Positions 5,402 to 25,964 are shown, counted from the first letter of the stretch. The stretch is DNA of 64,000 nucleotides from Candidatus Heimdallarchaeota archaeon (GCA_030603365.1 JAUVXV010000007.1:76616-140615), one strand, 5' to 3'. Notes: generated by a model not told the origin, from the letters alone. A program made the numbers and translations.

Positions 5402-6460
5402 ATGAATTCAGTGTCAAATCCTTGTTCTATGGTTAAACAAGGTTTTCCCGCAGGTTCTTGTTTGGTTCAGACTAGTTCTTTAGAGAAAGGAAGAGCTTGT
5501 GATTTAACTTTAAGAATTAATGAAGAAGGGGGTTACGAGAGAGTGATAAAATCTATCCATCTTTCTAGACCTGAAGACTATCTCTCAATTTACCAAAGTG
5601 GATGTAATCATACATGCAAGAAATGCCATTCTCATGAGTTCAGTAAGCATGTTAATGGAGATTGGATGAGTAGTGATGATATTGCAAATAAAGCGATAGA
5701 ATACGCAAGACATGTTACTGTTTATGAACCTAAAGAACGAGCAACCAGCTGGCATGCCCAACAGCTTTGTAAACATTGTGGATCATGTGTCCTTACTGGT
5801 GAGTACTCTCCAAAGTGCCCAAGAAAACTAAAGAAGGAACAAATAGTGTTGAGCCCTCAAGGTTTTGGACCAGCAAGAAACATAATTGCTTTTACTGGTG
5901 GAGACATAATGTGTAAACCAGAATTCTATACTCAAACAGCTGAAAAAATCAAAGCTGAAGAGGAGAATCTATTGATATTATTGGAGACTAATGGGTATGG
6001 TTTAACACCAAAGAATCTAGAGAAATTCGCTTCAGCTGGTATAGATTCCTTCTGGTTGGATATTAAAGCATATTCTGAAAGTATATATCAAAATCTCTGC
6101 GGAACAACAAACAAACATATTTTAGAAAGTGTTCAAAATATCAAAGATTTAGGGTTTACACTCGAAATATTAACTCTTTTTATTCCTTCAATTGTAGAAA
6201 CGGACGAACATAAGAAAATAGCTAAACTAATTGTTGATGTAGATGCAACTATTCCTACAACTTTACTTGCTTTCTTTCCTTGTTTTGAACTTAACAGTCC
6301 TTTATACAGGGGACCTAATGTTTCTGAAATGGCTAAAAGTTTTGAGATTATGAAAGAGATAGGAGTAAAAAACCTTCGAATGGGTAATTTAGGGGTTTTC
6401 ATGAAGAATCAGAAAGATATGGATTTTCTCGAAACAAAATTTGGGAAAAATTTCTACTAA
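5402..6460 (+). CDS. Radical SAM domain protein
   Basis: The CxxxCxxC cluster motif is GCNHTCKKCHS. FTGGDIMCKPEF is a SAM-binding GGE-like motif. The TIM-barrel-like remainder is present. Confidence 0.8.
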   Translation: MNSVSNPCSMVKQGFPAGSCLVQTSSLEKGRACDLTLRINEEGGYERVIKSIHLSRPEDYLSIYQSGCNHTCKKCHSHEFSKHVNGDWMSSDDIANKAIEYARHVTVYEPKERATSWHAQQLCKHCGSCVLTGEYSPKCPRKLKKEQIVLSPQGFGPARNIIAFTGGDIMCKPEFYTQTAEKIKAEEENLLILLETNGYGLTPKNLEKFASAGIDSFWLDIKAYSESIYQNLCGTTNKHILESVQNIKDLGFTLEILTLFIPSIVETDEHKKIAKLIVDVDATIPTTLLAFFPCFELNSPLYRGPNVSEMAKSFEIMKEIGVKNLRMGNLGVFMKNQKDMDFLETKFGKNFY

Positions 6461-6496
6461 ATTGTAAAACAAATTGACAAAACATATAAATTCTTA

Positions 6497-7894
6497 ATGA
6501 ACTCTTCATTGAGTAGCATGATTAAGCCATTAACAGCGATTCTTATTGGGGCTGGAGAGAGGGGGGCTGATGTTTTTGGAGAATACGCTTTGAGAAACCC
6601 AGACGAAATAAGATTTATTGCAGTAGCAGAACCGCTGGATAAACGAAGAAATTCTTTTTCATCAAAACATTTTATCGAACAAAAAAATTGTTTTAAAAGT
6701 TGGGAACAATTATTTGAAAAGGACAAGTTTGCAGATGTTGTCATAGTAACAACACAAGATCAACTACATTTTCAACCAGCTATTTTAGCAATGAAAAAAG
6801 GATATGATGTTCTCTTAGAAAAACCAATGGCCACTACTTTAGAGGAATGTAAGGAATTGGTAAATGTTTCTGAAAAGACTAGTCAAATTCTGCAAATAGG
6901 TCATGTTTTACGATATACTCCTTTTTTCTCTTCTATCAACAACCTGATAGTTTCAGGGAAGATTGGTGATTTAGTAAATATTTCTCTCAGAGAAAATGTA
7001 GCTTCTTTCCACTATTCCCATTCTTTCGCTAGAGGTAACTGGCATAATAGAGATAAATCAAGTCCCATGATCCTAGCTAAATCTTGTCATGATCTAGATA
7101 TTCTATTCTGGTATGCAAACTCCCGTGCAAGCAAAATAAGTTCTTTTGGCTCTCAAGCTCATTTTGGGAAGAGTAACATGCCTGAAGGAGCTCCAGAATT
7201 TTGTATTGAAGGATGTCCCATTTCTAAGAGTTGTCTATATCATGCACCTCGGATCTATCTAGATATAATTCCACTACTTCAGATTGCTAAACAAGGAAGT
7301 AAAGGATTTACAAGATTCATTGCTAAAGCAGTTTTGAGATTTCCTAGGTTGAAAAATATCCCCCCTTTCACCAAAATACGAGATTATTCGGGTTGGCCTG
7401 TAAGTGCAATATCAGATGATTTGTCAGTTGAAGGAAAGAAGAAAGCATTGCAATCAAACAATTATGGTAGGTGTGTTTATAGAATCACTGATCATGATAC
7501 AGTAGATCATCAAGTTGTAAATGTAGAATTTGAAAACAAAGTAACGGCTACTTTCACTATGCAGGGTTTTTCTCATGAAGAAGGTAGAACATTAAGAATA
7601 GATGGAACAAAAGGCACAATAATTGGTGAATTTCTACATTCAGGAGATAAAATCACTTTCAATGATTCTTTGACTGGAAAGGAAGAAGTTATTCGTAAAA
7701 CTGGAATGTCAGATGGTCATGGTGGTGGAGATGAAGGTATAATGAAAGCTTTCATTAGAAATGTTGGTGGGGAGGATAGAACAAAAGTTTTAACAGATGC
7801 AAGAGCATCTTTAGAATCTCATCTTATGGCGTTTGCAGCAGATATTTCAAGATTAGAAGAAAGGGTAGTTAAGATGGATGAAATGAGAAAATAA
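6497..7894 (+). CDS. Gfo/Idh/MocA-family oxidoreductase
   Basis: The N-terminal Rossmann motif is ILIGAGERGADVFGEYA and the EKP motif is VLLEKPMATTLEE. There is a Cys-containing insert, EFCIEGCPISKSC. Confidence 0.85.
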   Translation: MNSSLSSMIKPLTAILIGAGERGADVFGEYALRNPDEIRFIAVAEPLDKRRNSFSSKHFIEQKNCFKSWEQLFEKDKFADVVIVTTQDQLHFQPAILAMKKGYDVLLEKPMATTLEECKELVNVSEKTSQILQIGHVLRYTPFFSSINNLIVSGKIGDLVNISLRENVASFHYSHSFARGNWHNRDKSSPMILAKSCHDLDILFWYANSRASKISSFGSQAHFGKSNMPEGAPEFCIEGCPISKSCLYHAPRIYLDIIPLLQIAKQGSKGFTRFIAKAVLRFPRLKNIPPFTKIRDYSGWPVSAISDDLSVEGKKKALQSNNYGRCVYRITDHDTVDHQVVNVEFENKVTATFTMQGFSHEEGRTLRIDGTKGTIIGEFLHSGDKITFNDSLTGKEEVIRKTGMSDGHGGGDEGIMKAFIRNVGGEDRTKVLTDARASLESHLMAFAADISRLEERVVKMDEMRK

Positions 7895-7956
7895 AGGATT
7901 AGTTTGACGATAAATACAAATAACCAAAAGAAATTATAGTTATAAGGGAAGAATGC

Positions 7957-8568
7957 TTGATGATACAAAATATAATTATAACACATCATAGTGGGCTACC
8001 TCTTTTTGGACGATCGTTAATGTGCCATATAGGAGTGCATTGTGCAGATTTATCAAAGGATAACACATTTACAGATGAAACTTTGTTGAATTCTGCTCTA
8101 TTAAATGCAATGCTTATTTTTGATCAAGCAAATCCTAATGATTTCCATGAATTTGAAATGGAAAAAGCAAAAACGCTAACATTTCCCACAGAAAAAATTA
8201 CTGTTATAATGTATGCAGATCCAGAAGACAATTTAGAACAATATAAGAACAGATTAAGATTGTTTGCTGACTTGTTTACAAAGCAATATGGGTATCTTCT
8301 AGATGATTTCTCCGGAGATGTCAGCCCATTTGGAGATTTTCAGAATATTATTGTAAAGGAAGGCTTACTTGAAGAAGGAGAAAGATTCAGGAAAAATTGT
8401 GTTGAGTGTACTTATGACAAACATTGTGCATTTAGAATCACTGTTGCCGCACCCAATAAAACATTTAAAGAGATTTTTGATTCTATTTATCCAAGTAGCA
8501 TCTTCAAGAAAATGTGGTTGATTCTTATTGGTATGTTTAAGCCAAAATATTTTCCATTATATTCTTAA
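7957..8568 (+). CDS. Hypothetical protein with an N-terminal roadblock/longin-like module
   Basis: The sequence MIQNIIITHHSGLPLFGRSL...LLNSALLNAMLIFDQ...ITVIMYADPEDN follows the same pattern (beta hairpin, SG-x-P, LL-SGL/A-F helix) as the modules at 13906, 16173 and 35741. The ATG at 7960 is an alternative start. Confidence 0.5.
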   Translation: MMIQNIIITHHSGLPLFGRSLMCHIGVHCADLSKDNTFTDETLLNSALLNAMLIFDQANPNDFHEFEMEKAKTLTFPTEKITVIMYADPEDNLEQYKNRLRLFADLFTKQYGYLLDDFSGDVSPFGDFQNIIVKEGLLEEGERFRKNCVECTYDKHCAFRITVAAPNKTFKEIFDSIYPSSIFKKMWLILIGMFKPKYFPLYS

Positions 8569-13905: not shown

Positions 13906-15315
13906 TTAAATCAGCTTCATTAAAAGAGGATTACGCTTAAGTGCTAATCCTATTGCCTTATTTACAAAACTTTTAGGAAAACCTGAATGCTCGAATAAAT
14001 TTTGAAAAAGTAATTCTGCTTGCTCTTGCGAATAAAGAGAGAATGAAGTGATAATATATGACATTGAAACTAGTTTTCTTAATTCATTAAAGATTTCAAT
14101 TGCAGTTTTATTAATATCTTTATCAATATTCTTCTCATATAATCCAAAAAAGTACTCACTTGCTTGATGACCTTTAACACTACCTTCAATGAGATTGATA
14201 ACAACTATCTCACCAAGCTGATTTTTTGTTAGGATAAGTTTATCAAAGAGTTCTTTGTTCATCCCACATAATCCAACATCAAGTTCTGAAACAATATTAA
14301 TTGCATCTTCTTCATTATCTACCCATCCTTTAACTTTTATTGCGAGGTGTTGGTTGAAAATTGAGAGTGTATCAATTGTTATCTTAACTGTTAATTTATC
14401 ACCTACAACAATCACTTTTTTTCCTGTTGTTACGGAATACAATACTTGATCTAGATTTTTTAATATAGCATTTGAAAGATACGCTAATGATAATTCCTCA
14501 ACATCGGTATGAGTAAAATGGTTCCCAGAATCTTCTATATTTTGAATAAGATCGAGAACATCTAACATTTCAAATCTATAATCTTGATCAGATAGAATAC
14601 GCAGTTTCTCCTCAATCAAAGGAAACAATCTGAAAACTGTATGATCTAACTCTGGAGAAAACCTCAGTATTCCTACGTTTGTCCTCATTTCATCCTTCTC
14701 AATAACTAATAGTTCTGAAGTTTTTTTCTCAGGAACAAATAACAGAAGTCCTGTTAACTGATTTTCAAAATCATATTTGATTCTATGGTTAATAATCATA
14801 TCAAGTGTTTCTTTGGCTTCTACTTTTTTACCAACAGATTCAATTATTTCAGTGTCTGTTTCATCAAAATGAATCAAACTAAACACCTTGGGTTCTGATT
14901 CTCGTAAAGGATTTTTAGAGAAGAATAGAGGTAAATTGTAGATATCATGCAAAATGTGTTCGAGTATTAGAGCTGCTTCTCCTTCAGAAATCAGATTTTC
15001 ATCCCTATCTTCAAGCAAAGGACTTGCACTGAAATGAATTTGTTCCAGGATTTGTTCAAGATGTCGCTCTGAGAATAGAGTTTCTTCTACTTTAGTTTCA
15101 AGAATAAAAATAAAATCATAAACTTCAACAAAGGAGATGTTTTTGTCATGATAAGAAATTGATTGAAGTTCTTGACGGTGAACTTCTTTAGCGAAAGTGA
15201 TAATTGCACTAATCAAACCTGAGGCTAAGATGTGCCTAGTATCATCAGCTGATTCGGGTTTAGTAGCTAACAACAATCCTGAACCTGAAACCAGTGAAAG
15301 TTGCAAGTTTCGCAT
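13906..15315 (-). CDS. Hypothetical protein (469 aa) with an N-terminal roadblock/longin-like module; paralogue of 16173..17579
   Basis: The N-terminus LSLVSGSGLLLATKPESADDTRHILASGLISAIITFAKEV...ISFVEVYDFIFILE has a roadblock/LC7-type pattern. A second beta-alpha-beta segment spans about aa 150-260. The central block is KKVIVVGDKLTVKITIDTLSIFNQHL. Confidence 0.6.
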   Translation of the reverse strand: MRNLQLSLVSGSGLLLATKPESADDTRHILASGLISAIITFAKEVHRQELQSISYHDKNISFVEVYDFIFILETKVEETLFSERHLEQILEQIHFSASPLLEDRDENLISEGEAALILEHILHDIYNLPLFFSKNPLRESEPKVFSLIHFDETDTEIIESVGKKVEAKETLDMIINHRIKYDFENQLTGLLLFVPEKKTSELLVIEKDEMRTNVGILRFSPELDHTVFRLFPLIEEKLRILSDQDYRFEMLDVLDLIQNIEDSGNHFTHTDVEELSLAYLSNAILKNLDQVLYSVTTGKKVIVVGDKLTVKITIDTLSIFNQHLAIKVKGWVDNEEDAINIVSELDVGLCGMNKELFDKLILTKNQLGEIVVINLIEGSVKGHQASEYFFGLYEKNIDKDINKTAIEIFNELRKLVSMSYIITSFSLYSQEQAELLFQNLFEHSGFPKSFVNKAIGLALKRNPLLMKLI

Positions 15316-15409: not shown

Positions 15410-16165
15410 ATGAAAACTAGCACTATCCTCTATCAAGAACTAGTTCATAATGCTTGGGCTGCAGAGCATAATGTTCTCTATAAAGGATGGATATTAAGAC
15501 TATCAGAAGGGATTACACAAAGAGCAAATAGTGTTCTAACAATCAGATATCTGGGAAATGATGTAATAACTGATATTCGTAATATAGAAAATATATTTCA
15601 GAGTAGAAATCTTCCGCCTATTTTTCAAGTAGCAGATTATTTTGAACCTTCTAATCTAATTAAAATTTTGATTGGTGAAGGATATCATGCCAGAGATGAA
15701 ACTATAGTTATGAGTAGAAGTACTGAAATATCACAGAATATTGAAAAAAATGAAAATTTGACTTATTTGATTGAGGAAGGAGTCCCAGATATATGGTTTA
15801 AATCATTAACTAAATTTAGTTCCTCATCTGAAATAAGGATTAAAGGTATCGAGAATATAATTAGCAGATCTTCTGCAGAGAAAATAACATGTTTTGCTCA
15901 AGATGGTAATGAGATAACAGGAATAGTTTTAGGACTTAGGGAAGGAGATTATATTGGGATATATAATCTAACAGTGGATTCCCAAAGAAGAAGAGAAAGA
16001 ATCGGTAAGAGCATAATGTTGAAACTAATGGATTGGGCACACAAAAGCAATATAGGGGTGGTTTATCTTGCTGTAGAAGATGACAATGTAGGTGCTCGAA
16101 AATTATACCAAAAGCTGAATTTTGAAGAGAAATTCAAATACAGATATTTTGTTAGAGAAGAATAA
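15410..16165 (+). CDS. GNAT-family N-acetyltransferase
   Basis: The C-terminal acetyl-CoA-binding motif is RRRERIGKSIMLKLMDWA...VYLAVEDDNVGARKLYQKLNFEE. Confidence 0.8.
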   Translation: MKTSTILYQELVHNAWAAEHNVLYKGWILRLSEGITQRANSVLTIRYLGNDVITDIRNIENIFQSRNLPPIFQVADYFEPSNLIKILIGEGYHARDETIVMSRSTEISQNIEKNENLTYLIEEGVPDIWFKSLTKFSSSSEIRIKGIENIISRSSAEKITCFAQDGNEITGIVLGLREGDYIGIYNLTVDSQRRRERIGKSIMLKLMDWAHKSNIGVVYLAVEDDNVGARKLYQKLNFEEKFKYRYFVREE

Positions 16166-16172
16166 ATGAATA

Positions 16173-17579
16173 TTAGAGCAGATAGTCCAAAAGAGGGTTT
16201 CTTCTTACTGCCATTTCTAATGCTTTCTTAATAAAAGTTGAAGAATATCCTGATTGAGAACTTATCTCTTTCAATTTCTGTTTACCTTTTACTTCATCTA
16301 CTAAACTAATTGATGTCATATCAAGAGAAAGTGCTACTAGTTTTTCCAGATCTAGAGCTATTTTTGTAACTATTTCTGCTATTGATAGTTTCTTTATTGT
16401 ATCAAATAATTTTTTGAAATGATGGCTTGATTTAGCTCCAGTAACTCGACTATTTACTAGATTGATGCATACATCTGTTTCCTTAATTGTTTCACTACTT
16501 AGGAGCGCGTTATAAATTTCTGTAGACATTCCACACATTCTAGCCGAAAGATCACACTTTCCATTTTGAGAAAAATCGTCAGCAGATATCCACAAATTGA
16601 CAGAAGTTTGTAGGTGCTGTGTGAATATGGACATAGAATCAATAACAAGTTTTACTGTTGGTTTATCTCCTACAATGAAAATTGGTTCTCCAATAACTGC
16701 AGAATAAATTGCTTTATCAAGATTACGTCCTACAGTTCTAACTAAGAATGAAGGAGATAAATCCTCTAGATTTATTCTTGATAATCGATTTCCTGGATCA
16801 TCGATGTCTTTTAACGTGTTTAATATGCGTTCCATACTCAAAATTTCTTTGTCTTCTGACATTACTGAAAGCATTCTATCCATCATAGTAAACAGCCTGA
16901 ATAACACCAAATCTAATTCACGTGATATCTTTAAAATTCCTACACGAGAAGTTTTTCCATCTGTGTCAATAACAGTATATGTAGTACTCTTTTCTTCAGG
17001 TATATGTGTTAGTATTCCTTTTAACCCATTAATACATTTTTCATTTGCTTTTAAGGTATCAAGCATCAATGCAATTGTTGGTATAAATGATCCGGAACCC
17101 ACCTTATCTTTAATTTCCCAACCTTTGTCTGTATGAAATAATGTGAAATAAGCACTTTCTGACATTTTTAGAGGTTGTTCAGTGATTGAATAATGTAATA
17201 ATTGAACACCTTGTAGACATTTATCTAGAATTATAGCAGCTTCTCCTTCAGTTATTATATTTGGGTCAACTCCTTCTAGAATTGGTTCTGTACATTCTTT
17301 TAACTGTTGGAGTAATTGTCCAAGCTTTTGTTCAGAAAGTGTTGCTTCTTCATCAATAGTTTCCAAAATTAAGACGAATTCGTGTACTCTTACAAATGAA
17401 ACAGTACGATCATGATAAGAGATAGACTGTAATTCTCTATGATGTACTTCTTTAGAAAAAGAAATCAATGCTGTCATTAAGCCTGTTGCTAAAATCTGTC
17501 TTGTATCATCTACAGCTTCAGGTTTTGAAGCTAGAAGTATACCTGAAGAAGTAACAAGAGATATCTTAATGTTTAGCAT
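16173..17579 (-). CDS. Hypothetical protein (468 aa) with an N-terminal roadblock/longin-like module; paralogue of 13906..15315
   Basis: It is about 60 percent identical, by eye, to the paralogue over the first 75 aa or so (ISLVTSSGILLASKPEAVDDTRQILATGLMTALISFSKEV...). The central block is EPIFIVGDKPTVKLVIDSMSIFTQHL. Confidence 0.6.
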   Translation of the reverse strand: MLNIKISLVTSSGILLASKPEAVDDTRQILATGLMTALISFSKEVHHRELQSISYHDRTVSFVRVHEFVLILETIDEEATLSEQKLGQLLQQLKECTEPILEGVDPNIITEGEAAIILDKCLQGVQLLHYSITEQPLKMSESAYFTLFHTDKGWEIKDKVGSGSFIPTIALMLDTLKANEKCINGLKGILTHIPEEKSTTYTVIDTDGKTSRVGILKISRELDLVLFRLFTMMDRMLSVMSEDKEILSMERILNTLKDIDDPGNRLSRINLEDLSPSFLVRTVGRNLDKAIYSAVIGEPIFIVGDKPTVKLVIDSMSIFTQHLQTSVNLWISADDFSQNGKCDLSARMCGMSTEIYNALLSSETIKETDVCINLVNSRVTGAKSSHHFKKLFDTIKKLSIAEIVTKIALDLEKLVALSLDMTSISLVDEVKGKQKLKEISSQSGYSSTFIKKALEMAVRRNPLLDYLL

Positions 17580-17684
17580 TAGGTGGTTTTAGAAATTAGT
17601 TATATAAATAAATTTACTTTAGACTAAGAGCAGAAAAATCAAGTTAGTATTAATAATAATTGAAGAAAAAGATAGAAAATAAAC

Positions 17685-17792
17685 TTATTTCATGTTCTTT
17701 TCTTGATTTCGTTTATCACGAATCTCATCTAGTACTTCAAGAGTGATGGTAGCTACACCTCTCTCCTTAGCTTGTTCTACTATTTGAGTCAT
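17685..17792 (-). CDS. Small ORF or remnant resembling a PCP_red-type domain (a small alpha-helical domain found C-terminally in protochlorophyllide reductase subunit B)
   Basis: Manual translation from the ATG gives MTQIVEQAKERGVATITLEVLDEIRDKRNQEKNMK. The frame stays open upstream to 17868 (LDSEVYWTDKACAKIVTITRVFLKKA...), with only a TTG as a possible start three codons before the ATG. Confidence 0.25.
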   Translation of the reverse strand: MTQIVEQAKERGVATITLEVLDEIRDKRNQEKNMK

Positions 17793-17886
17793 AGCTTTTT
17801 TCAAGAAAACCCTAGTAATAGTGACTATTTTTGCGCAAGCTTTATCTGTCCAATAAACCTCGGAATCTAGTCACTTGTCAATATTA

Positions 17887-18720
17887 TCAGTTCTTAGTAT
17901 TTTGTTGATATTGCATTTCAAACCAAGATTTCTTTCGTATCAACTTTCTGTACCAAGCTGGCATTACCCACCCAAGATACATTGCAACATAAGCTGTTGC
18001 ATATGAGATTGCTCGAAAAGCTGAAATTGTAATCATCAAAGCTGGAATATTAGGAATACTACCATGCAAAGCTGAAAACAACCACGCTAATAGATATAAA
18101 AACACTCCAACACTAATTGTTTGTAATCCTCTCTTTCTAATAGGGTGATCTGATTTTCTTGCAAGCCTAAAAGCTCTAAATCCTATTCTACCTGTAACAA
18201 AAATTGAGACTACTATTTGGACTAAAAGGATGGGCCAAGTATATGAAATTGCAAATACATTCTTAGTGATGTAGGTTGGTTCAGAATACAATGAATGTGT
18301 ATATATATTATCATAAGCAATTACAGCAGTAACAATACCATAAACTACCATTATTACAGCAAAAATATAGGTTTTGATAATTTCATTATCTTTTAAAATA
18401 TGTCTACAGCCAAAGAAATAGAGAAATGCAAATGCAGGGAGGATAATTAATGGAGTTAAAGACCCTATCTGATAAATAGTATCAGTCATCACACCTTCAT
18501 TGTAAATGAGCGAAATACGGTATGCAATACTAAAAGCTGATGCTAAAGAAAATAGGAAGTAGGATGAAAGTAACATGAATGTGCCTACAGTTTTCTTGCG
18601 AAAGAAGTTGACTAAGAGCGTGATAACTAGTGCTAGACTGAAAGCCATGTTTATTACAGATGTAATAATTATGAAAAATGATGCAGGTTCTATTGCTGAA
18701 AGATCTACCATCATCATCAC
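17887..18720 (-). CDS. Seven-transmembrane membrane protein, hypothetical
   Basis: 277 aa. Seven hydrophobic helices are readable in the translation. The GTG-ATG-ATG-ATG start directly abuts the TAG stop of the upstream GTPase gene. There is no Lys in helix 7, so it is not a rhodopsin. Confidence 0.7.
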   Translation of the reverse strand: MMMMVDLSAIEPASFFIIITSVINMAFSLALVITLLVNFFRKKTVGTFMLLSSYFLFSLASAFSIAYRISLIYNEGVMTDTIYQIGSLTPLIILPAFAFLYFFGCRHILKDNEIIKTYIFAVIMVVYGIVTAVIAYDNIYTHSLYSEPTYITKNVFAISYTWPILLVQIVVSIFVTGRIGFRAFRLARKSDHPIRKRGLQTISVGVFLYLLAWLFSALHGSIPNIPALMITISAFRAISYATAYVAMYLGWVMPAWYRKLIRKKSWFEMQYQQNTKN

Positions 18721-19245
18721 CTAGACAAACTCATCAACAAACCATTTGAAGGCATTGAATATTCCTTCTCCTGTCTTTGCTGAGGTTTCAAAAACTGCCC
18801 ATTTAAAAGGTAAATCCAACAACTTGAATTCTTCAATAAAGAGTGATTTTTCTATAACATCAGATTCATCACTCTTATTGAGTAAAATTAATATTATCAA
18901 ATCTTGATCCAATTGTGCGTGAATGGTTTGTTCAAACACATCCTTTGCCTCATCAAATCTCATAATATTAGATCGATCAATAACGAATACAATTCCATCA
19001 GATTTTTCGTTGATATTGTGCCACATATTTCTGAAATCTTCCTGACCAGCTAAATCAAAAACGTTAATTTGTAAATTTGGTAAGTGTAAGGTTTCTCTAT
19101 TCACACCCATAGTTGGAGTTGTTTCAACGAATTCACCAGTTTCTAGAAACTTTAGTATAGTTGTTTTACCAGCATCATCTAGACCACAGATTGTTATATC
19201 TGCATGTTTTGTTCTGCTTCGAAATAGGTTTAGTAAGAACGACAT
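18721..19245 (-). CDS. Arf/Arl/Sar-family small GTPase
   Basis: G1 is GLDDAGKTT, switch I is TPTMGVN, G3 is DLAGQ, G4 is NKSD and G5 is TSAK. The N-terminal amphipathic segment is MSFLLNLFRS. It is collinear with eukaryotic Arf1. Confidence 0.9.
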   Translation of the reverse strand: MSFLLNLFRSRTKHADITICGLDDAGKTTILKFLETGEFVETTPTMGVNRETLHLPNLQINVFDLAGQEDFRNMWHNINEKSDGIVFVIDRSNIMRFDEAKDVFEQTIHAQLDQDLIILILLNKSDESDVIEKSLFIEEFKLLDLPFKWAVFETSAKTGEGIFNAFKWFVDEFV

Positions 19246-19258
19246 ATTTTTCCCTCAA

Positions 19259-19753
19259 CTAATCCCACAAATCATCAGATAGCTTATCTATCGCATTACC
19301 ATTCTTGTCATTTCCTTGTTTTGGAAAATCAAATTTTATGGTTGACGTAGAAGTTATCTCTATTTTGAACTGTCCTTTGCTAAATCCTTTGTAAAGTTTC
19401 GGTAAAATTCCTTCCAAAGTACTGGTTGCCAATAGATCTTTCTTTTCAAGTTCTGTTACTACCCAAGAGAACACTTGTTTAATAGAAGTAGCATCATAAT
19501 CAGTCGTATTGAATACAGCAACTAATGAAGCAAGATTATCTCTTTGATCAGCAGTAGGTATGCGAAATATATAACTTGTCAAATTTAGATCATTAAAAGT
19601 CGTTGAAGCAAAATCCCCTGGGTTTGATCCCATCGGGATAGTTTTGTAAACAAGCTGACTCATTGAATCAGTAGGTATAACATCGGGGAAAGATTTGACT
19701 AACTCTAATCCCCTTGCGCCCATATTAATTAGACATAAACTTAATGGTTTCAC
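19259..19753 (-). CDS. Longin/roadblock-like (uDENN-like) domain protein, hypothetical GTPase regulator
   Basis: 164 aa with a GTG start preceded by AGGGGA. The pattern LCLINMGARGLELVKSFPD...TSYIFRIPTADQRDNLASLVAVFN...IKQVFSWVVTELEK resembles longin/uDENN folds. It sits 13 nt upstream of the GTPase gene, and a GAGGG lies in that gap. Confidence 0.5.
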   Translation of the reverse strand: MKPLSLCLINMGARGLELVKSFPDVIPTDSMSQLVYKTIPMGSNPGDFASTTFNDLNLTSYIFRIPTADQRDNLASLVAVFNTTDYDATSIKQVFSWVVTELEKKDLLATSTLEGILPKLYKGFSKGQFKIEITSTSTIKFDFPKQGNDKNGNAIDKLSDDLWD

Positions 19754-19790: not shown

Positions 19791-19798
19791 TTTAAATA
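19791..19798 (-). promoter_or_regulatory. TATA-box-like element (TTTAAATA) upstream of the longin-GTPase-7TM operon
   Basis: The AT-rich octamer lies 38-45 nt upstream of the GTG start at 19753. The same TTTAAATA-type motif recurs upstream of other genes in the window. Confidence 0.35.
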
Positions 19799-20191
19799 TC
19801 TTTTTAAAACTGCAAAACGCTATTTCTAAGGGGTTTATCCGCGATTTCAAGCATTTTCGAATGTGCAGAGAAATGCACAATTGACGTTTTATTGAACGAT
19901 GTTCAGTCTAATGCACAAATTTAATTTTATTGACTTTAAAAAAACAATAAAAAGAATAATGAAATAGCTAATATATTAGCAGATAGCACATTCATTTAAT
20001 TGTTTAGTTAATTTTTTTAGGATTACAGAGCCCACATACTTACAAAATTCTTAGGTTTGAAGTAGTCTGCTGACAAAAAAAATTAGTGCAGTTTTCCTAA
20101 ACAAACTCACGTTGATTGGATAGCTTTATAAATTTCTTAGGAAGAAATGTGTTTGGTTAAAGATTTAATTTTAACTGAATGGTGAAATTAA

Positions 20192-21610
20192 ATGGAAAAA
20201 GATTATGTTTTTGATCTATTAAACAAAGCAGTTGATCAAGGTCATAAACTTGGTGCAGACTTTTTAGAAGCTAGATATGATGATTTACAATTAACTACAA
20301 TAAATTTAACAAATGATATCATTAAACAATCCTCTTCTATAAATAGAAAAGGTATTGGTGTTATGGCTTATTATCAAGGTACACCAGGTTATAGTTTTAC
20401 TCCTGAATTAAGTTCAGAAGGTGTGGCAGAAGCTACAAAGAAAGCAGTAAAACTAGCAAAGTCAACTGATATAAGAAATAAGCTTAAGCTTGATTTTGAT
20501 AAGATTAAACCAATCAAAGATCATATAGAAGTTAAAGCTAAAAAACATCCAAAAGACTATGAATTTGATGATAAACTCGCTATGCTAAAACGAGGAGTTT
20601 CAGCCATCAAAGAACAAGTAGATGCAACAAGTACTACTGGAATGTATGGAGAGATGTATGGTGAAAAGTTCTTCATTAATTCTGAAGGATCTGAGATTTA
20701 TTGGGTTCCAATGATTGTTGACATGAGAATGGTTGCTGTTCTAATTAGTGAAGGACAACAAGCAATGGGTGCAGAAGGAATAGGAGCTTCTAAAGGTCTT
20801 GAGCACTTTGATGAAAAAGGACGTTCTCCAGAAGACTTCGGAACTATTGCAGGAAAAGACTGTAAAGATTCTTTGAACGCTGTTGCAGCTCCTACTGGCA
20901 AAACAACAACTCTTGTATCTCCTCAAATGGGAGGAGTAGTTGTTCATGAATCATTTGGTCATTTATCAGAAGCAGACTTTGTTGTTACTGGTCAATCTCC
21001 AATTGCAGATAGAGTGGGTGAACAACTTGGAAGTGAGCATGTTACAATTATCGATGAAGGCGTTCCTGAACAAGGAGGTTTGTTCTTTCCATATGATGAT
21101 CAAGGAACTAAAACTGGAAAAACCGTTCTAGTTGAAGATGGAATTCTGAAAGGATATCTTCATAATAGAGGTACTGCTAAGAAAATGAACTCTGAATTAA
21201 CTGGAAACTGCAGGGCAATAAACTTCTTGTATAATCCTATAGTACGAATGAAAAATACTTACTTTGGAGCAGGAAATCTAACTTTTGAAGAAGCTCTAGA
21301 AGAAGTAGGTACAGGAATATATGCAGTAGATATGTCTGGAGGACAAGTTGGATTAGATGGAAACTTCATGTTCAATTGTCGCAAAGGATATCTCATCGAA
21401 AATGGAGAGATAACTAAACCCATAAAAAATTCCTCTTTATCTGGAAATATTTTAGAATTACTCAAATATATTAAAGGTGCAACCAAAGATATTGAAATTC
21501 GAACTGGTTATTTTGGTGGATGTGGTAAAAATGGTCAAAATGGTTTACCTGTTGGTTTAGGTGGTCCTAATGTAATTATGGATCAAGTTCTTGTTGGAGG
21601 TGCTCAATAA
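20192..21610 (+). CDS. tldD: TldD-family metalloprotease (copy 1)
   Basis: 472 aa. The metal-binding HExxxH motif is HESFGH. The conserved C-terminus is GGCGKNGQ...PVGLGGP. Confidence 0.92.
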   Translation: MEKDYVFDLLNKAVDQGHKLGADFLEARYDDLQLTTINLTNDIIKQSSSINRKGIGVMAYYQGTPGYSFTPELSSEGVAEATKKAVKLAKSTDIRNKLKLDFDKIKPIKDHIEVKAKKHPKDYEFDDKLAMLKRGVSAIKEQVDATSTTGMYGEMYGEKFFINSEGSEIYWVPMIVDMRMVAVLISEGQQAMGAEGIGASKGLEHFDEKGRSPEDFGTIAGKDCKDSLNAVAAPTGKTTTLVSPQMGGVVVHESFGHLSEADFVVTGQSPIADRVGEQLGSEHVTIIDEGVPEQGGLFFPYDDQGTKTGKTVLVEDGILKGYLHNRGTAKKMNSELTGNCRAINFLYNPIVRMKNTYFGAGNLTFEEALEEVGTGIYAVDMSGGQVGLDGNFMFNCRKGYLIENGEITKPIKNSSLSGNILELLKYIKGATKDIEIRTGYFGGCGKNGQNGLPVGLGGPNVIMDQVLVGGAQ

Positions 21611-22986
21611 TGTCCTTAGATGATCTTAGAAATAAAATTTTGAATATTGCCGATACAACTATTAAACACTCTAGAGACTTAAATATTCCCTCAACAGAAG
21701 TATTTGTTCTAGAACAATCTACAACAAACTTAACCGATAATAAAGGTAAAGTTGATAGTAGAGATGGATTAGTTCAAGGAATAGGTATCAGAGTAGCAGT
21801 AGGTAAGAAACTAGGATTTGCAAGTTGTACAGGATTTGATGAAGAAACAATTAAATCCACTCTTAAACAAGCTCACAGTATTGCCAATGTAAGTCCTGAA
21901 AATCCAATGTTCAATGGTTTTGTAGCTGAAACCAAAATGTCAAAAGAAGGTATTTTAGACCCAGATATCCCACATCTTGATGCAGATGATCTAATCGAGA
22001 AATGCAATATTATGAATCAAGAAGTTGATCTAAGTGACAGAAGGATTATTTCAGGAAGTTTTGGTGCTAATATTGCATATCAGGGATTTGCAATTGCAAC
22101 TACTGAAGGATGCTTAGCTTCTTCTCTTCAAACAACATTTGGAGCTAATTCTTACTTTGTTGTTACTGATGCTGGAGACCGAAAAACAGCTCAAGATTTT
22201 GTAGCAGCAAGGAAAGTAGAATCAGTTGAAGGAATTGCTCCTAAAGCACTCAATAAAGCAATTAGTTCCTTGGGATCCAAAGCTTTTGGAGGATCAGAAG
22301 TTCTACCAACCATTTGGGAACCTCGTGAATCTGCTCCATTTCTAGCATTTGCATTTTTCAATGTTTTCTCAGGATCTGCTTATGTAGAAAAAAGCAATCC
22401 ATGGAAAGAAAAATTGAATGAAAAGGTGGCTGTAAAAGAATTGACTGTTATTGATGATGGTCAAAAACCTGATACTGAAGCTTGTCAATCTATTGATGCT
22501 GAAGGTACTCCAAAACAAACAACTGCTATCATAGAAGATGGAGTATTGAAGACTTTTCTATTTAATAAAATGTACGGAGATGCTGCTGGTTTTAGTACTA
22601 CAGGAAATGCACAGCGAGGAGGAATCTTTGGTGGCACACCTTACGAAAATATACCTGTTGTAGGACCAAATCAGATGATGATTAAAGAAGTCGCAAAAAA
22701 CCTTGAAGAACAGATCTCAGAAATAGATAAAGGAATTCTTATTACTGGAACACCAATTGGGTTGTTTACAGCTAATCCTGTTACAGGTGACTTCAGTGTT
22801 ACATGCAATGATACATTTCTAATTGAAAAAGGAGAAAAAGTTCATCCTCTGAAATCTATAAGTATTGCAGGGAACTACTTTGAGACCTTGAATAATATCC
22901 GTTTCATTGGAAATGACACAGAACAATCTGGATGGCCGATTGATGCTCCAAGTATGACCTTTCTGAACCATACAATCTCAGATTAA
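21610..22986 (+). CDS. pmbA: PmbA/TldE-family protein (copy 1), partner of TldD
   Basis: 458 aa. The ATG overlaps the tldD stop by 1 nt. It has a TldD/PmbA fold without HExxxH. The conserved block is GIGIRVAVGKKLGFAS. Confidence 0.9.
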   Translation: MSLDDLRNKILNIADTTIKHSRDLNIPSTEVFVLEQSTTNLTDNKGKVDSRDGLVQGIGIRVAVGKKLGFASCTGFDEETIKSTLKQAHSIANVSPENPMFNGFVAETKMSKEGILDPDIPHLDADDLIEKCNIMNQEVDLSDRRIISGSFGANIAYQGFAIATTEGCLASSLQTTFGANSYFVVTDAGDRKTAQDFVAARKVESVEGIAPKALNKAISSLGSKAFGGSEVLPTIWEPRESAPFLAFAFFNVFSGSAYVEKSNPWKEKLNEKVAVKELTVIDDGQKPDTEACQSIDAEGTPKQTTAIIEDGVLKTFLFNKMYGDAAGFSTTGNAQRGGIFGGTPYENIPVVGPNQMMIKEVAKNLEEQISEIDKGILITGTPIGLFTANPVTGDFSVTCNDTFLIEKGEKVHPLKSISIAGNYFETLNNIRFIGNDTEQSGWPIDAPSMTFLNHTISD

Positions 22987-22987
22987 A

Positions 22988-23013
22988 TTCTTCTTTTCCT
23001 TTCTTTTTTTATT
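22988..23013 (+). terminator. Oligo-T tract after pmbA copy 1
   Basis: The sequence ttcttcttttcctttctttttttatt follows the stop codon directly. Archaeal terminators are typically T-runs. Confidence 0.4.
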
Positions 23014-23037
23014 ATTTAACCAATCGGTTTTGAATAA

Positions 23038-23048
23038 TTTTATAAATA
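23038..23048 (+). promoter_or_regulatory. TATA-box-like element (TTTTATAAATA) upstream of tldD copy 2
   Basis: It lies about 125 nt upstream of the GTG at 23171 and is followed by three phased direct repeats (see findings). Confidence 0.3.
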
Positions 23049-23170
23049 TCCTAAGCATGAAAATTTCAATCCTAATCATGTTTACAAATATTCTTAACAT
23101 GATAATGTGACCGACTTGTGACCAGTTACTTAAAGTAAAGTGCTCAAACAAGTACTTATAGAAACACAAG

Positions 23171-24595
23171 GTGAAAATAGTGGAAAATGATTATGTTTTT
23201 GATCTATTACATAAAGCAGTTGATCAAGGTCATAAACTAGGTGCAGATTTTGTAGAGGCAAGGTACGATGATTTAACCTTAACAACTATAAACTATACAA
23301 ATGAAAAGGTTCGAGAATCTTCTACTAAACAACGTAGAGGAATAGGTGTTATGACATATGTCAAGGGTTCTCCCGGATATTCATTTACACCAGACATAAC
23401 TTCAGAAGCAATTCAAGAAACCACAAAACGGTCTCTTGGGATAGCAAAAGCTACTGAACCTCTTTTAACTTTTAAGCACATTTATGATGATCGATCTTCG
23501 ATCAAAGATTCAATTGTAAAGAAAGTAAAAATTCATCCTAAGGAAGTTGAATTTGACGAAAAACTTGACATGCTTAAGCGTGGAATAGCTAACGCTAAGG
23601 ATCAGGTTGATGCTCAATCTACAACAGGTATGTGGGGAGAACTCTGGGGAGATAAATTATTTGTAAACTCTGAACAATCTGAGATTTATTGGACCCCACT
23701 CTTGTTTGATCTACGTATAATGGCAGTTGCTATGACTGAAACTTCTCAAGCTCGTGGTTCTGATGGAGTAGGACAATCTCAAGGGATGGAATATTTTGAT
23801 ATTGAAGCTCACAGCCCTGAAACTCTAGGAACCAATGCTGGTAAATGGTGCAAAGAGCAAATTGATGCTGTTTCTGCTCCACCAGGAAAACATAGAGCTT
23901 TAGTAGGACCAAGAATGGCAGGTGTTCTTGCACATGAAAGTTTTGGTCACCTCTCTGAAACTGATTTTGTTATTACTGGTATGTCTCCAATTTCAGATAG
24001 AGTAGGAGAACAACTTGGAACTGAGCATGCGACTATCATTGATGAAGGTATTACAAAAGAAGGTGGATTCTTCTTACCTTATGATGATCAAGGAACTAAA
24101 ACTGGAAAAACCGTTCTAATGGACAAGGGTATGCTACTGGGTTATCTACATGATAGAAGTACAGCTAATAAAATGAATACTGAACCTACTGGAAATTCTA
24201 GAGCTATTACTTTTATGTTCCCATCGATACCAAGAATGAAAAATACTTATTTCAAGCCTGGAAACATAAGTTTTGATGAAGCTGTAGAACAAGTTGGAGA
24301 TGGTCTCTATACAGCTGGAACTTCAGGAGGTCAAACAGACCTTGATGGTACATTTCTGTTCAAATGTAGTCGTGGATACCTGATTGAAAATGGCGAGATT
24401 ACCAAACCTATCAAAGATGCTGCACTCTCAGGTCAAATTCTAGAATTCATTCAACAAATTAGTGGAGTTACAAATGAGATGGACATATTTACTAGTTACT
24501 TTGGCGGATGCGGAAAAGGTGGTCAATATCCTCTTCCAGTTGGATTAGGTGGACCTAGTCTGGTTGTTGATGAGGTTTTAGTTGGTGGTGAATGA
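23171..24595 (+). CDS. tldD: TldD-family metalloprotease (copy 2)
   Basis: 474 aa with a GTG start and the HESFGH motif. It is collinear with copy 1 throughout. Confidence 0.92.
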   Translation: MKIVENDYVFDLLHKAVDQGHKLGADFVEARYDDLTLTTINYTNEKVRESSTKQRRGIGVMTYVKGSPGYSFTPDITSEAIQETTKRSLGIAKATEPLLTFKHIYDDRSSIKDSIVKKVKIHPKEVEFDEKLDMLKRGIANAKDQVDAQSTTGMWGELWGDKLFVNSEQSEIYWTPLLFDLRIMAVAMTETSQARGSDGVGQSQGMEYFDIEAHSPETLGTNAGKWCKEQIDAVSAPPGKHRALVGPRMAGVLAHESFGHLSETDFVITGMSPISDRVGEQLGTEHATIIDEGITKEGGFFLPYDDQGTKTGKTVLMDKGMLLGYLHDRSTANKMNTEPTGNSRAITFMFPSIPRMKNTYFKPGNISFDEAVEQVGDGLYTAGTSGGQTDLDGTFLFKCSRGYLIENGEITKPIKDAALSGQILEFIQQISGVTNEMDIFTSYFGGCGKGGQYPLPVGLGGPSLVVDEVLVGGE

Positions 24596-24596
24596 A

Positions 24597-25964
24597 ATGG
24601 TTTTAGAAAAAATTCGTTCTGAACTCTTAGAAGTTGCTGATTTAGCTTTGAAATATTCTAAAGATCTAGCTGTACCTACAGCTGAAGCTTTCATCATTAA
24701 GAACTCACTTACTGAAATCAAATATTCTAAAGGTAAAACTGAATGCAGAGATGGTATGGTTCAAGGTATCGGTATTAGAGTAGCAGTTGGAAAGCAAGTA
24801 GGTTTCGCAACATGTGCTGGTTTTGCTTCTGAATCACTTAAAACAACAATTGAAAACGCACACAAAATTGCTAAGAATAGTCCAGAAGATCCTAGATTCT
24901 CAGGATTTGTAGCAGAGAGTAAACCTGGTAAAGAAGGTAATCTTGACGTAAACATAGTAAATCTAGAAACGGCTTCTCTAATTGGACAAATGGCTGAATT
25001 AATCAAAGAAAGCAATATAGACGATCAAAGGTTGGTAGGAGCTGATTTAGAAATAGGTACTGAATGGGGAGGTTATGCAGTAGCAACCACAGAAGGTTGT
25101 TTAGTCTCGTCCATGCATACTACTCATTATGGAACTGCATACGCAGTTACTATGGGACAAGATGAAAGATCCACCGCTTTTGGGTTTAAAGCTGGTCTAA
25201 CTCTTCAAGATTTATCTGGAATTGGAACTTCTGCAATCGAGAAAGCTCTCAAGCATCTTGGCTCAAGTCCATTAGGAGAAACTGTTAAAATACCTACAAT
25301 ATGGGAACCAATTTCAGCATCTATGCTCTTGAGTACAACTTTTACTGTTGGATTAAACGGTGGTACAGTAGTCGAAAAAAGAAATCCTTTGATGAGCAAA
25401 CTTAATGAACAAATTGCCAATAAAGATTTTCAACTCTACGATGATGGTACTAATCCAGAAAAACTATCTTGTGAAGCAGTAGATGCTGAAGGATCTACAG
25501 TGAGAAAAACAGAAATCATAAAAGATGGAGTTCTGAAGAATTTCCTCTTCGACAATTTCTATGGCCCAGTCTTTGGTGCAGGTAGTACAGGTAATGCTAG
25601 ACGCAATCCTCCAACTGAATATGAGAGTCTCCCTACTATAGGTCCTAATAAATTGGTAATTCAACCAGGTACAAAGAATCTTGATGAGATAATAGCGGGT
25701 TTTGATGATGCTATATACATTGAAGGTTTCCCAATGGGTATGGGGCATAGTAACATGATCACTGGTGATTTTTCAGTAACAGCTACAAACGCATATCTTG
25801 TAAAGAATGGAGAGATTGTACATCCTCTTAAACCAGTTAGTATAGCAGGTAATTTCTTCAAGTCTCTTAATGATTTAGAACATGTTGGATCAGATACTAT
25901 TGACTTGCCATTCCCACTAGAAAGTTCAACTTTAGCAATTAATAACCACACTATAAGTGGTTAA
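24597..25964 (+). CDS. pmbA: PmbA/TldE-family protein (copy 2)
   Basis: I prefer the ATG at 24597 (MVLEKIRSELLEVAD, which aligns with MSLDDLRNKILNIAD of copy 1) over the track start at 24582. That ATG lies 1 nt after the tldD2 stop codon (24593..24595). Confidence 0.9.
   Translation: MVLEKIRSELLEVADLALKYSKDLAVPTAEAFIIKNSLTEIKYSKGKTECRDGMVQGIGIRVAVGKQVGFATCAGFASESLKTTIENAHKIAKNSPEDPRFSGFVAESKPGKEGNLDVNIVNLETASLIGQMAELIKESNIDDQRLVGADLEIGTEWGGYAVATTEGCLVSSMHTTHYGTAYAVTMGQDERSTAFGFKAGLTLQDLSGIGTSAIEKALKHLGSSPLGETVKIPTIWEPISASMLLSTTFTVGLNGGTVVEKRNPLMSKLNEQIANKDFQLYDDGTNPEKLSCEAVDAEGSTVRKTEIIKDGVLKNFLFDNFYGPVFGAGSTGNARRNPPTEYESLPTIGPNKLVIQPGTKNLDEIIAGFDDAIYIEGFPMGMGHSNMITGDFSVTATNAYLVKNGEIVHPLKPVSIAGNFFKSLNDLEHVGSDTIDLPFPLESSTLAINNHTISG

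Follow-up and report, generated by a model that had tools for sequence, protein, structure and literature searches.

The 64,000-nucleotide (nt) stretch of DNA analysed here (the window) comes from a Candidatus Heimdallarchaeota archaeon (GCA_030603365.1 JAUVXV010000007.1:76616-140615) and carries on its minus strand three tightly packed genes, encoding a longin-domain protein of 164 amino acids (aa), an Arf-family small GTPase of 174 aa and a seven-transmembrane (7TM) protein of 277 aa. Their order and spacing are conserved across about 20 loci, and we tentatively propose that the three proteins build a membrane-resident GTPase switch in which the longin serves as the GTPase-activating protein (GAP). 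An earlier note on this DNA had described three open reading frames (ORFs) lying head to tail on the minus strand, and reading of the ORFs confirmed it. The features, counted from the first letter of the window, are:

19791..19809, minus strand: AT-rich stretch, TTTTAAAAAGATATTTAAA on the coding strand; candidate archaeal TATA box/B recognition element (BRE), 38-56 nt upstream of the longin GTG, from a reading of the sequence alone
19259..19753, minus strand: longin-domain protein, 164 aa; GTG start; stand-alone, with a predicted NPRL2-like longin fold of the GAP type
19246..19258, minus strand: spacer of 13 nt that separates the longin stop from the GTPase ATG and contains GAGGG, a ribosome-binding-like element
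18721..19245, minus strand: Arf-family small GTPase (ArfR-type), 174 aa; ATG start; N-terminal amphipathic helix
17887..18720, minus strand: seven-transmembrane protein, 277 aa; orphan Asgard family; GTG-ATG-ATG-ATG start

Both junctions read as they had been described. The longin TAG is followed by the 13 nt ttgagggaaaaat and the ATG of the GTPase, while the GTPase stop codon TAG (18721..18723) immediately adjoins the 7TM GTG at 18720, leaving a gap of 0 nt. The 7TM gene opens with four consecutive candidate start codons. An existing gene call (P0001) places the start later, giving a protein of 253 aa in which the first transmembrane helix (TM1) would be truncated; the longer 277-aa form is favoured because homologues conserve the TM1 region upstream of the 253-aa start. 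The GTG start of the longin is supported by homologues that begin with MKP. As to the promoter, the box that the earlier note had placed at 19791..19798 was quoted there as TTTAAATA, which is the plus-strand reading; its AT-rich character holds on the coding strand, where it reads TATTTAAA, and a second AT-rich stretch, TTTTAAAAA, adjoins at 19801..19809. Either stretch could be the archaeal TATA box. A promoter and terminator scan gave background counts, the scanner being one for bacterial sigma-70 sites and not applicable to archaea.

Conservation and co-divergence of the three genes

The order longin-Arf-7TM on one strand was found in every core family locus with upstream DNA, so that the gene order, whose conservation had been proposed as a check, proved strongly syntenic. 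The roughly 20 full triads comprise 14 loci in species-representative genomes, one divergent locus (L025, with a very divergent 7TM member, profile E = 2.8e-4), one JGI contig, three to four metagenome contigs and the window, the metagenome contigs having been scanned with the closer rather than the broad 7TM alignment. Additional contig-end fragments agree with this order. The sources are metagenome-assembled genomes (MAGs) labelled Heimdallarchaeota, a few MAGs labelled otherwise, and metagenome contigs. Two of the triad contigs, L006 (QM1B.68, labelled Thorarchaeota) and L018 (SMAG_U14241, labelled Bathyarchaeia), are either mis-binned or mislabelled or lie genuinely outside Heimdallarchaeia.

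Spacing is conserved together with order. The distance from the Arf stop to the 7TM start lies between -20 and +8 nt in all 16 aligned triads, and the longin-to-Arf gap between 3 and 69 nt. In L001 and L014 the flanking genes are wholly unlike those of the window, and the triad is intact. The three proteins moreover share a common history: their pairwise identity matrices correlate with r = 0.91-0.94, and each divides into the same clades, A to E. Some genomes hold paralogous triads (three in MAG_147, namely L012, L016 and L020; two in HM7_B34, L014 and L019), which sit in different clades, consistently for all three proteins. Because the three proteins give the same clades and correlated identities, the unit must have duplicated and diverged as a whole block. 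The 7TM protein diverges fastest, at a mean pairwise identity of 32%, against 51% for the longin and 57% for the Arf protein.

Outside the core family, remote relatives carry a longin homologue (E ~1e-25) 1 nt upstream of the 7TM gene and no Arf gene within the locus (L038, 232..1462; L039, 189..1347; L040, 3496..4792). Such longin-7TM pairs without a GTPase gene point to a direct link between longin and 7TM protein, maybe older than the three-gene unit; the pair may be a deeper core than the link between 7TM protein and GTPase. Two further loci hold distant 7TM proteins. In L023, a Promethearchaeota MAG, a distant member (7341..8111) lies 270 nt downstream of a Rab/Ras-like GTPase gene (6544..7074) whose product is 25% identical to the triad Arf protein, and no longin is present. 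In L019 (HM7_B34), a second, weakly related 7TM protein of 256 aa (5941..6711; family hidden Markov model E = 9e-6) is encoded about 200 nt upstream of the triad.

The three proteins

The motifs on which the earlier note had called the GTPase Arf/Arl-like are all present in the translation (GLDDAGKTT, TPTMGVN, DLAGQ, NKSD and TSAK, with an N-terminal MSFLLNLF that continues to MSFLLNLFRSR), and the Pfam Arf model (PF00025) matches the full length of the protein, residues 5-172, with 139.8 bits (cut-off 22.3; E = 8.2e-41). All 16 aligned triads preserve motifs G1 to G5, the catalytic Gln of DxxGQ and, at the N-terminus, a helix of the pattern M[SGA]F[LFI]xx[LI]F[KR]. Triad GTPases form a conserved subgroup of their own, with the signatures DITICGL, TPTMG[VI]N and FKWA.[FY]ETSAKTG. 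In those of clades B and D (L012, L013, L014, L017 and L020), the G4 motif is HKxD, not NKxD, and the remaining G motifs are intact. Its motifs mark the window GTPase as competent to act as an Arf-type switch. Neither Gly2 nor an intrinsic Arg finger is present in it, and Arf-family GTPases require an Arg supplied in trans.

The best PDB sequence match is 8OUN/8OUM (E = 1.6e-29), the Asgard ArfR protein GerdArfR1, followed by Arf1, Arl1 and Arf6. GerdArfR1 is thus the nearest solved structure, and the window GTPase resembles the Asgard ArfR/AArf proteins in being a full-length Arf with an N-terminal amphipathic helix and no Gly2. ArfR is an Asgard group proposed as the source of eukaryotic Arf-family proteins. 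Membrane binding by the amphipathic helix and an interswitch toggle have been demonstrated experimentally for GerdArfR1, and experiments on the toggle and on nucleotide-dependent membrane binding concern HodArfR1 and GerdArfR1 only. Unlike the present analysis, the main texts of the ArfR/AArf papers (Vargova et al., bioRxiv 10.1101/2024.02.28.582541; Zhu et al., PMC11914678) contain no terms relating to operons, neighbourhoods, synteny, transmembrane proteins or genomic context.

No Pfam or NCBIfam family matches the 164-aa protein, whose relatives fall into about 23 clusters. Its AlphaFold2 (AF2) model, with a predicted local distance difference test score (pLDDT) of 75 and a predicted template-modelling score (pTM) of 0.72, follows the longin order beta-beta-alpha-beta-beta-beta-alpha-alpha (strands at residues 5-12 and 15-22, helix 28-38, strands 48-53, 56-65 and 73-81, helices 88-104 and 110-126), with a C-terminal hairpin and a disordered tail. 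The top Foldseek match in the PDB is NPRL2 of GATOR1 (9o5a_H; E = 1.4e-6, query-normalised TM-score (TMq) 0.71, 162 aligned columns). Further NPRL2 chains (7t3b_B and 6ces_N, the chain identity being confirmed) stand among the top matches, and yeast Npr2 and NPRL3, a Lokiarchaeal longin dimer, FLCN, Lst4, DENND10 and the small and medium AP subunits come after them. The label "longin/uDENN-like" given to this protein earlier therefore stands in its longin half, by both model order and the NPRL2/NPRL3 matches; the uDENN half falls away. The comparison with MglB/roadblock proteins made at the same time is not the best description, given the longin element order and the NPRL2/NPRL3 best matches. 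The protein consists of longin, hairpin and disordered tail, with no NPRL2-specific C-terminal domain or DENN domain.

Twelve residues of the longin are invariant in all 16 aligned triads (G12, G15, E17, P23, P40, G46, P66, R71, N73, Y86, P118 and G123). Arg71 lies in the beta4-beta5 loop, just before beta5. In eukaryotes, longin GAPs employ an Arg finger when they act on GTPases of the Rag and Arf families (PMC8213707), and the predicted fold suggests that the 164-aa protein is a stand-alone longin of the type that forms these GAPs. Its C-terminal tail, encoded within 19259..19330 and predicted to be disordered, ends in an acidic-Trp sequence (DDLWD in the window protein). The motif [DE][DE][LM]W[KRD] is found in 15 of the 16 triads and an acidic-Trp end recurs in the remote longin-7TM pairs (EEELW). 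This end of the tail resembles a short docking motif.

The family of the 7TM protein is small. Its members numbered 28 clusters in 5.8e9 proteins, and a profile search among 1.84e9 gave 71 representatives, all of the same type; an additional homologue search with the broad 7TM alignment found no new members. Members are labelled as coming from Heimdallarchaeota or from metagenomes. Across 48 of them, no Pfam family is consistently matched. The absence of a known transporter or enzyme family, a point on which the earlier note had staked its reading, was borne out: the nearest match is NCBIfam NF042915 (MAB_1171c family putative transporter), a family itself without biochemical characterisation, at a sub-threshold 22.6 bits against a cut-off of 100, with weak matches in 12 of the 48 members.

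The seven helices read from the sequence reappear in the AF2 model (pLDDT 86.7, pTM 0.81), in which a beta-hairpin separates TM4 from TM5 and TM7 is followed by two short helices, the C-terminal segment being helix-8-like. In a Foldseek search of the PDB, the best 50 matches were all G protein-coupled receptors (GPCRs), over about 290 aligned columns and with E between 2.8e-4 and 3.5e-3. GPCRs again lead in a viral structure library (BFVD), where hemolysin III appears only at rank 37. The model suggests a GPCR-like 7TM bundle at the level of the fold and not membership of the GPCRs, as no GPCR Pfam family was found at E<=1 among the 48 members, nor any DRY, CWxP or NPxxY motif. Two Gordonia phage membrane proteins in BFVD (A0A7G9UZD0 and A0A7G8LIL3) are among the best-fitting matches, with target-normalised TM-scores (TMt) of 0.56-0.63; along with the weak MAB_1171c match, they hint at a wider prokaryotic 7TM superfamily.

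Lys and Arg residues number 17 on the cytoplasmic side of the 7TM protein (intracellular loops, ICL, and C-terminus) and one on the outer side (N-terminus and extracellular loops, ECL), and the predicted topology is therefore N-out/C-in. Conservation follows the same division. Among close homologues it reaches 0.88 in cytoplasmic and 0.47 in external loops, and at a mean identity of about 21% it is still 0.52 against 0.25; insertions and deletions fall in the external loops and ECL2. Conserved motifs lie in ICL1 (KKTxGT), at the end of TM3 and in ICL2 (CRHILKDNE, with the invariant Arg106), in the TM5-6 loop (RKSDxPxRKRGLQ) and at the end of TM7 and in helix 8 (YLGWxMPxWxRKxIRxKxWFExQY).

TM7 is the helix that bears the retinal-binding Lys in rhodopsins. 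As the earlier note had observed, no Lys occurs in TM7 of the 7TM protein, where Arg236 (18013..18015, mid TM7) is found instead. This membrane-embedded residue, one of the few conserved polar residues within the bundle, is invariant in 24 close homologues and the majority residue in the 48-member alignment. Identity as a microbial rhodopsin was rejected on the missing Lys, the lack of a Pfam match and the absence of any rhodopsin from the top 50 fold matches in the PDB and BFVD. A transporter of the PQ-loop/SWEET type was likewise rejected, with no Pfam match in the 48 members and no 3+1+3 repeat (TM1-3 against TM5-7, hhalign probability 2.4%).

Neighbouring genes

Around the triad, the window contains the following genes:

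13906..15315, minus strand: 469-aa paralogue of the 468-aa protein below (38% identity)
15410..16165, plus strand: GNAT acetyltransferase, divergent, between the 468- and 469-aa genes
16173..17579, minus strand: 468-aa protein, possibly multi-longin; accessory to one clade and outside the core triad
17685..17804, minus strand: ORF of 39 aa, the sole ORF in the 308-nt gap (17580..17886) between the 7TM and 468-aa genes
20192..25964, plus strand: two consecutive TldD/PmbA metallopeptidase gene pairs (four genes), divergent from the triad

In every clade-A locus, homologues of the 468/469-aa proteins are encoded on the downstream side of the triad; in L015 one immediately follows the 7TM gene, and none is present near clade B, C and E triads. 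The 468-GNAT-469 arrangement is repeated in L003/L008, L005 and L009, and the clade-A loci L003, L005 and L009 and the JGI contig likewise have a TldD/PmbA pair as their neighbour upstream. Six of 12 members of the 468/469-aa family match Intu_longin_1 (the first longin of INTU/CCZ1/HPS4), weakly (E = 1e-3), one member matches Fuz_longin_1 (FUZ/MON1/HPS1), and the L003 homologue of the 468-aa protein has a faint SMCR8_C match. The family profile found no match among PDB sequences, and hhalign detected no relation between this family and the 164-aa longin family. Their size fits three longin domains, and the 468/469-aa proteins could form a heterodimeric guanine nucleotide exchange factor (GEF) like Mon1-Ccz1. 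At the position of the window's 17580..17886 gap, relatives have a gene of 263-285 aa with faint Flavin_Reduct or PCP_red matches, which appears to have been lost from the window.

A candidate membrane-linked GTPase switch and its alternatives

We propose that the three genes constitute one co-transcribed and co-inherited module that builds a membrane-resident small-GTPase switch with the longin as GAP, a reading to which we give a probability of roughly 0.45. The ArfR GTPase would be the switch, its GTP form held on the membrane by the N-terminal amphipathic helix. The 7TM protein would be an integral-membrane platform or sensor, whose basic, conserved cytoplasmic face (the ends of TM3, TM5, TM6 and TM7 with the helix-8-like segment) may bind the soluble partners. 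The longin would be the cognate regulator, most likely a GAP supplying the invariant Arg71; it probably docks at the 7TM protein, an attachment that its acidic-Trp tail may provide. Ligand, lipid or substrate would set the state of the 7TM protein, and that state would determine the lifetime of ArfR-GTP at the membrane site. GAP activity is favoured because the nearest fold is that of NPRL2, because the Arg is invariant and because Arf proteins need an Arg in trans. Fusions of longin with Arf and with other GTPases occur in other Asgard proteins (PMC10933270 among the sources) and lend the proposal support of the Rosetta-stone kind.

No published description of a longin-Arf-7TM triad was found among open-access papers and preprints (supplements lying mostly outside the search), in agreement with what the earlier note had supposed. 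Asgard genomes are rich in both small GTPases and longin/roadblock proteins. In MK-D1, however, small-GTPase genes as a rule do not share operons with genes for roadblock, longin or TRAPPC3 proteins (Tran et al., PMC10933270), which makes the assignment of partners to Asgard GTPases difficult. NPRL2-like longins are abundant in Asgard archaea, and the conserved neighbourhoods of eukaryotic signature proteins described in the same study are only an ESCRT operon and an operon of LAMTOR1-like, Rab-like and DENN genes (Liu et al., 10.1101/2020.10.19.343400). Which GTPase the GAP-like longins of Heimdallarchaea serve is a question posed by a survey of longin GAPs (PMC12290439).

Several known systems resemble the triad in part. 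MglA-MglB and the Asgard operon of LAMTOR1-like roadblock, Rab-like GTPase and DENN genes (10.1101/2020.10.19.343400) are likewise operons of prokaryotes in which a small GTPase of the Ras superfamily is encoded with a regulator of the roadblock/longin superfamily, but here the GTPase is an Arf rather than MglA- or Rab-like, the regulator has a longin and not a roadblock fold, and an integral-membrane 7TM partner, missing from those systems, is obligatory. This orphan partner, with its GPCR-like predicted fold, is what is new relative to the known units of small GTPase and longin or roadblock regulator. GATOR1 (NPRL2-NPRL3-DEPDC5), FLCN-FNIP and C9orf72-SMCR8 share with the triad the longin fold (TM-score 0.71 to NPRL2), a conserved Arg before beta5, a client of the Rag/Arf type and a membrane site beside a multi-pass protein (PQLC2, SLC38A9). 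They are large heterodimers, whereas the window longin is a single 164-aa protein encoded in the same operon as its presumed client, and one without sequence similarity to them, GP motif, NPRL2 C-terminal domain or DENN domain. The system of GPCR, heterotrimeric G protein and regulator of G protein signalling (RGS) is matched by a 7TM protein with N-out/C-in topology, a predicted fold like that of GPCRs and conservation at the cytoplasmic ends of TM3, TM5, TM6, TM7 and helix 8, together with a GTPase and a candidate GAP. It differs in that G-alpha has a helical domain and beta-gamma partners where the triad has a small Arf-type GTPase, in that RGS takes the place of a candidate-GAP longin, in the lack of any GPCR family or motif in the 7TM protein, and in the remote 7TM relatives that pair with a longin alone. 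Integral membrane proteins also act as site-specific receptors or activators for Arf-family GTPases that bind by an N-terminal helix, as Sys1 does for Arl3p/ARFRP1 and Sec12 for Sar1. Sys1 (four transmembrane helices) and Sec12 (a single one and a beta-propeller) have folds unrelated to that of the triad 7TM protein, and no longin takes part in either system.

A number of observations weigh against the proposed switch. The link between longin and NPRL2 is structural only, since sequence and profile alignments are insignificant: the longin profile found no match among PDB sequences, hhalign against NPRL2 residues 1-167 gave a probability of 0.3%, and a global pairwise alignment gave z = 1.7. 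Arg71 may correspond to the Arg78 finger of NPRL2, both lying just before beta5, by secondary-structure register only. The GP motif reported at the start of beta2 in eukaryotic and some Heimdall GAP longins (PMC12290439) is absent, the corresponding sequence being M11-G12-x-x-G15-L16, in which the Gly residues are invariant and no Pro comes next. Eukaryotic GAP longins work as heterodimers, whereas the operon contains no second small longin. Many longin modules are GEFs, and GEF activity of the 164-aa protein is a live alternative. On the side of the membrane protein, the alignment supplied to AF2 was shallow (24 sequences) and may favour GPCR-like packing; the resulting fold scores are marginal (TM-score 0.43-0.55, root-mean-square deviation 6-11 A, typically ~7 A), and the abundance of GPCRs in the PDB may bias the matches. 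Some remote 7TM relatives (L021, L022 and L036/37) stand alone. Co-transcription of the three genes, like the physical contacts among their products, GAP rather than GEF activity and the direction of signal flow, is something we infer.

The alternative that survives best, though unlikely, is that the 7TM protein, activated by a ligand, itself acts as GEF on the Arf-type GTPase, much as GPCRs do on G-alpha, with the longin an RGS-like GAP that turns the GTPase off. GPCRs are the best full-length structural matches in both libraries, and the N-out/C-in topology, ECL2 hairpin and helix-8-like segment conform. The most conserved positions coincide with the zones of contact between GPCRs and G proteins (cytoplasmic TM3 with Arg106, TM5, TM6 and TM7/helix 8), and the variable outer side is as expected for diversifying ligand specificity. 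The translational coupling of Arf and 7TM genes is the tightest junction in the operon, and the GTPase itself has a sub-threshold Pfam match to G-alpha (E = 3.6e-9). These agreements have to be set against marginal fold scores, the lack of any GPCR family or DRY, NPxxY or CWxP motif in 48 members, and the remote longin-7TM pairs, which, having no GTPase gene, fit a 7TM protein that anchors or partners the longin better than a GEF. An Arf-family GTPase with a 7TM protein as its GEF is, to our knowledge, without precedent. The architecture, the pattern of conservation and the predicted fold-level resemblance to GPCRs (E ~3e-4, TM-score ~0.5) are the grounds for the earlier note's likening of the triad to a receptor, a G protein and a regulator; such a function is conjectural. 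That an archaeal receptor of GPCR-like fold and a longin GAP directly control the nucleotide state of an Arf-family G protein we also regard as doubtful.

Rather improbable is a role in nutrient sensing, in which the 7TM protein would be a small-solute transporter whose conformation brings in the longin GAP and through it controls the Arf GTPase. Eukaryotes offer parallels in lysosomal PQLC2, which recruits the Arf GAP C9orf72-SMCR8-WDR41, and in SLC38A9 with GATOR1 and the Rag GTPases (PMC7039192, PMC8213707). The longin is NPRL2-like, and on lysosomal membranes longin GAP complexes work alongside transceptors of the 7TM or multi-TM kind (PMC7039192, PMC8213707, PMC12290439). The weak NF042915 matches in a quarter of the 7TM family (12/48) would also fit, as would the two possibly multi-longin paralogues and TldD/PmbA peptidase genes beside the triad in the window's clade. 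That NCBIfam match is far under its cut-off and to a family itself uncharacterised, however, and neither a PQ-loop or other transporter Pfam match nor an internal 3+1+3 repeat was detected. The top 50 fold matches include no PQ-loop, SWEET or cystinosin structure, and few polar residues are conserved inside the membrane.

Very improbable is a likeness to the signal recognition particle receptor, with the longin as the SRX domain of SR-alpha, the GTPase as SR-beta and the 7TM protein as membrane anchor for protein targeting. SRX does have a longin-like fold and binds SR-beta-GTP, and Pfam SRPRB matches the GTPase (E = 3e-8), but the Arf model matches far better (E = 8e-41) and no SRX structure is among the top 50 fold matches of the longin. 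The triad is narrowly and patchily distributed, with up to three paralogues per genome, which is at odds with a core targeting function. Least credible of all is genomic hitch-hiking of three functionally unlinked genes, for although Asgard GTPase, longin and roadblock genes are mostly reported outside conserved operons and all contacts among the three proteins are inferred, order, strand and near-zero spacing are kept in about 20 loci with unrelated flanks, where whole-unit duplications and congruent divergence are also seen.

The proposed longin-regulated switch provides a specific, testable assignment in which one ArfR subgroup is matched with a single NPRL2-like longin and a single integral membrane partner, three small proteins suited to reconstitution. 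It thereby turns the open problem of what regulates an archaeal Arf protein, and where, into a question of reconstituting three proteins. A sensing role of the 7TM protein, if borne out, would make it the first case in archaea of a multi-pass membrane protein connected to an Arf-family switch, and would bear on the pre-eukaryotic origin of membrane identity, nutrient sensing or 7TM-receptor signalling. Were the GPCR-like receptor reading true, the triad would represent a prokaryotic unit of 7TM receptor, G protein and GAP in the lineage closest to eukaryotes. Such a unit could be ancestral or parallel to the coupling of 7TM receptors with G proteins, or to the lysosomal machinery of transceptor, longin GAP and Arf/Rag GTPase.

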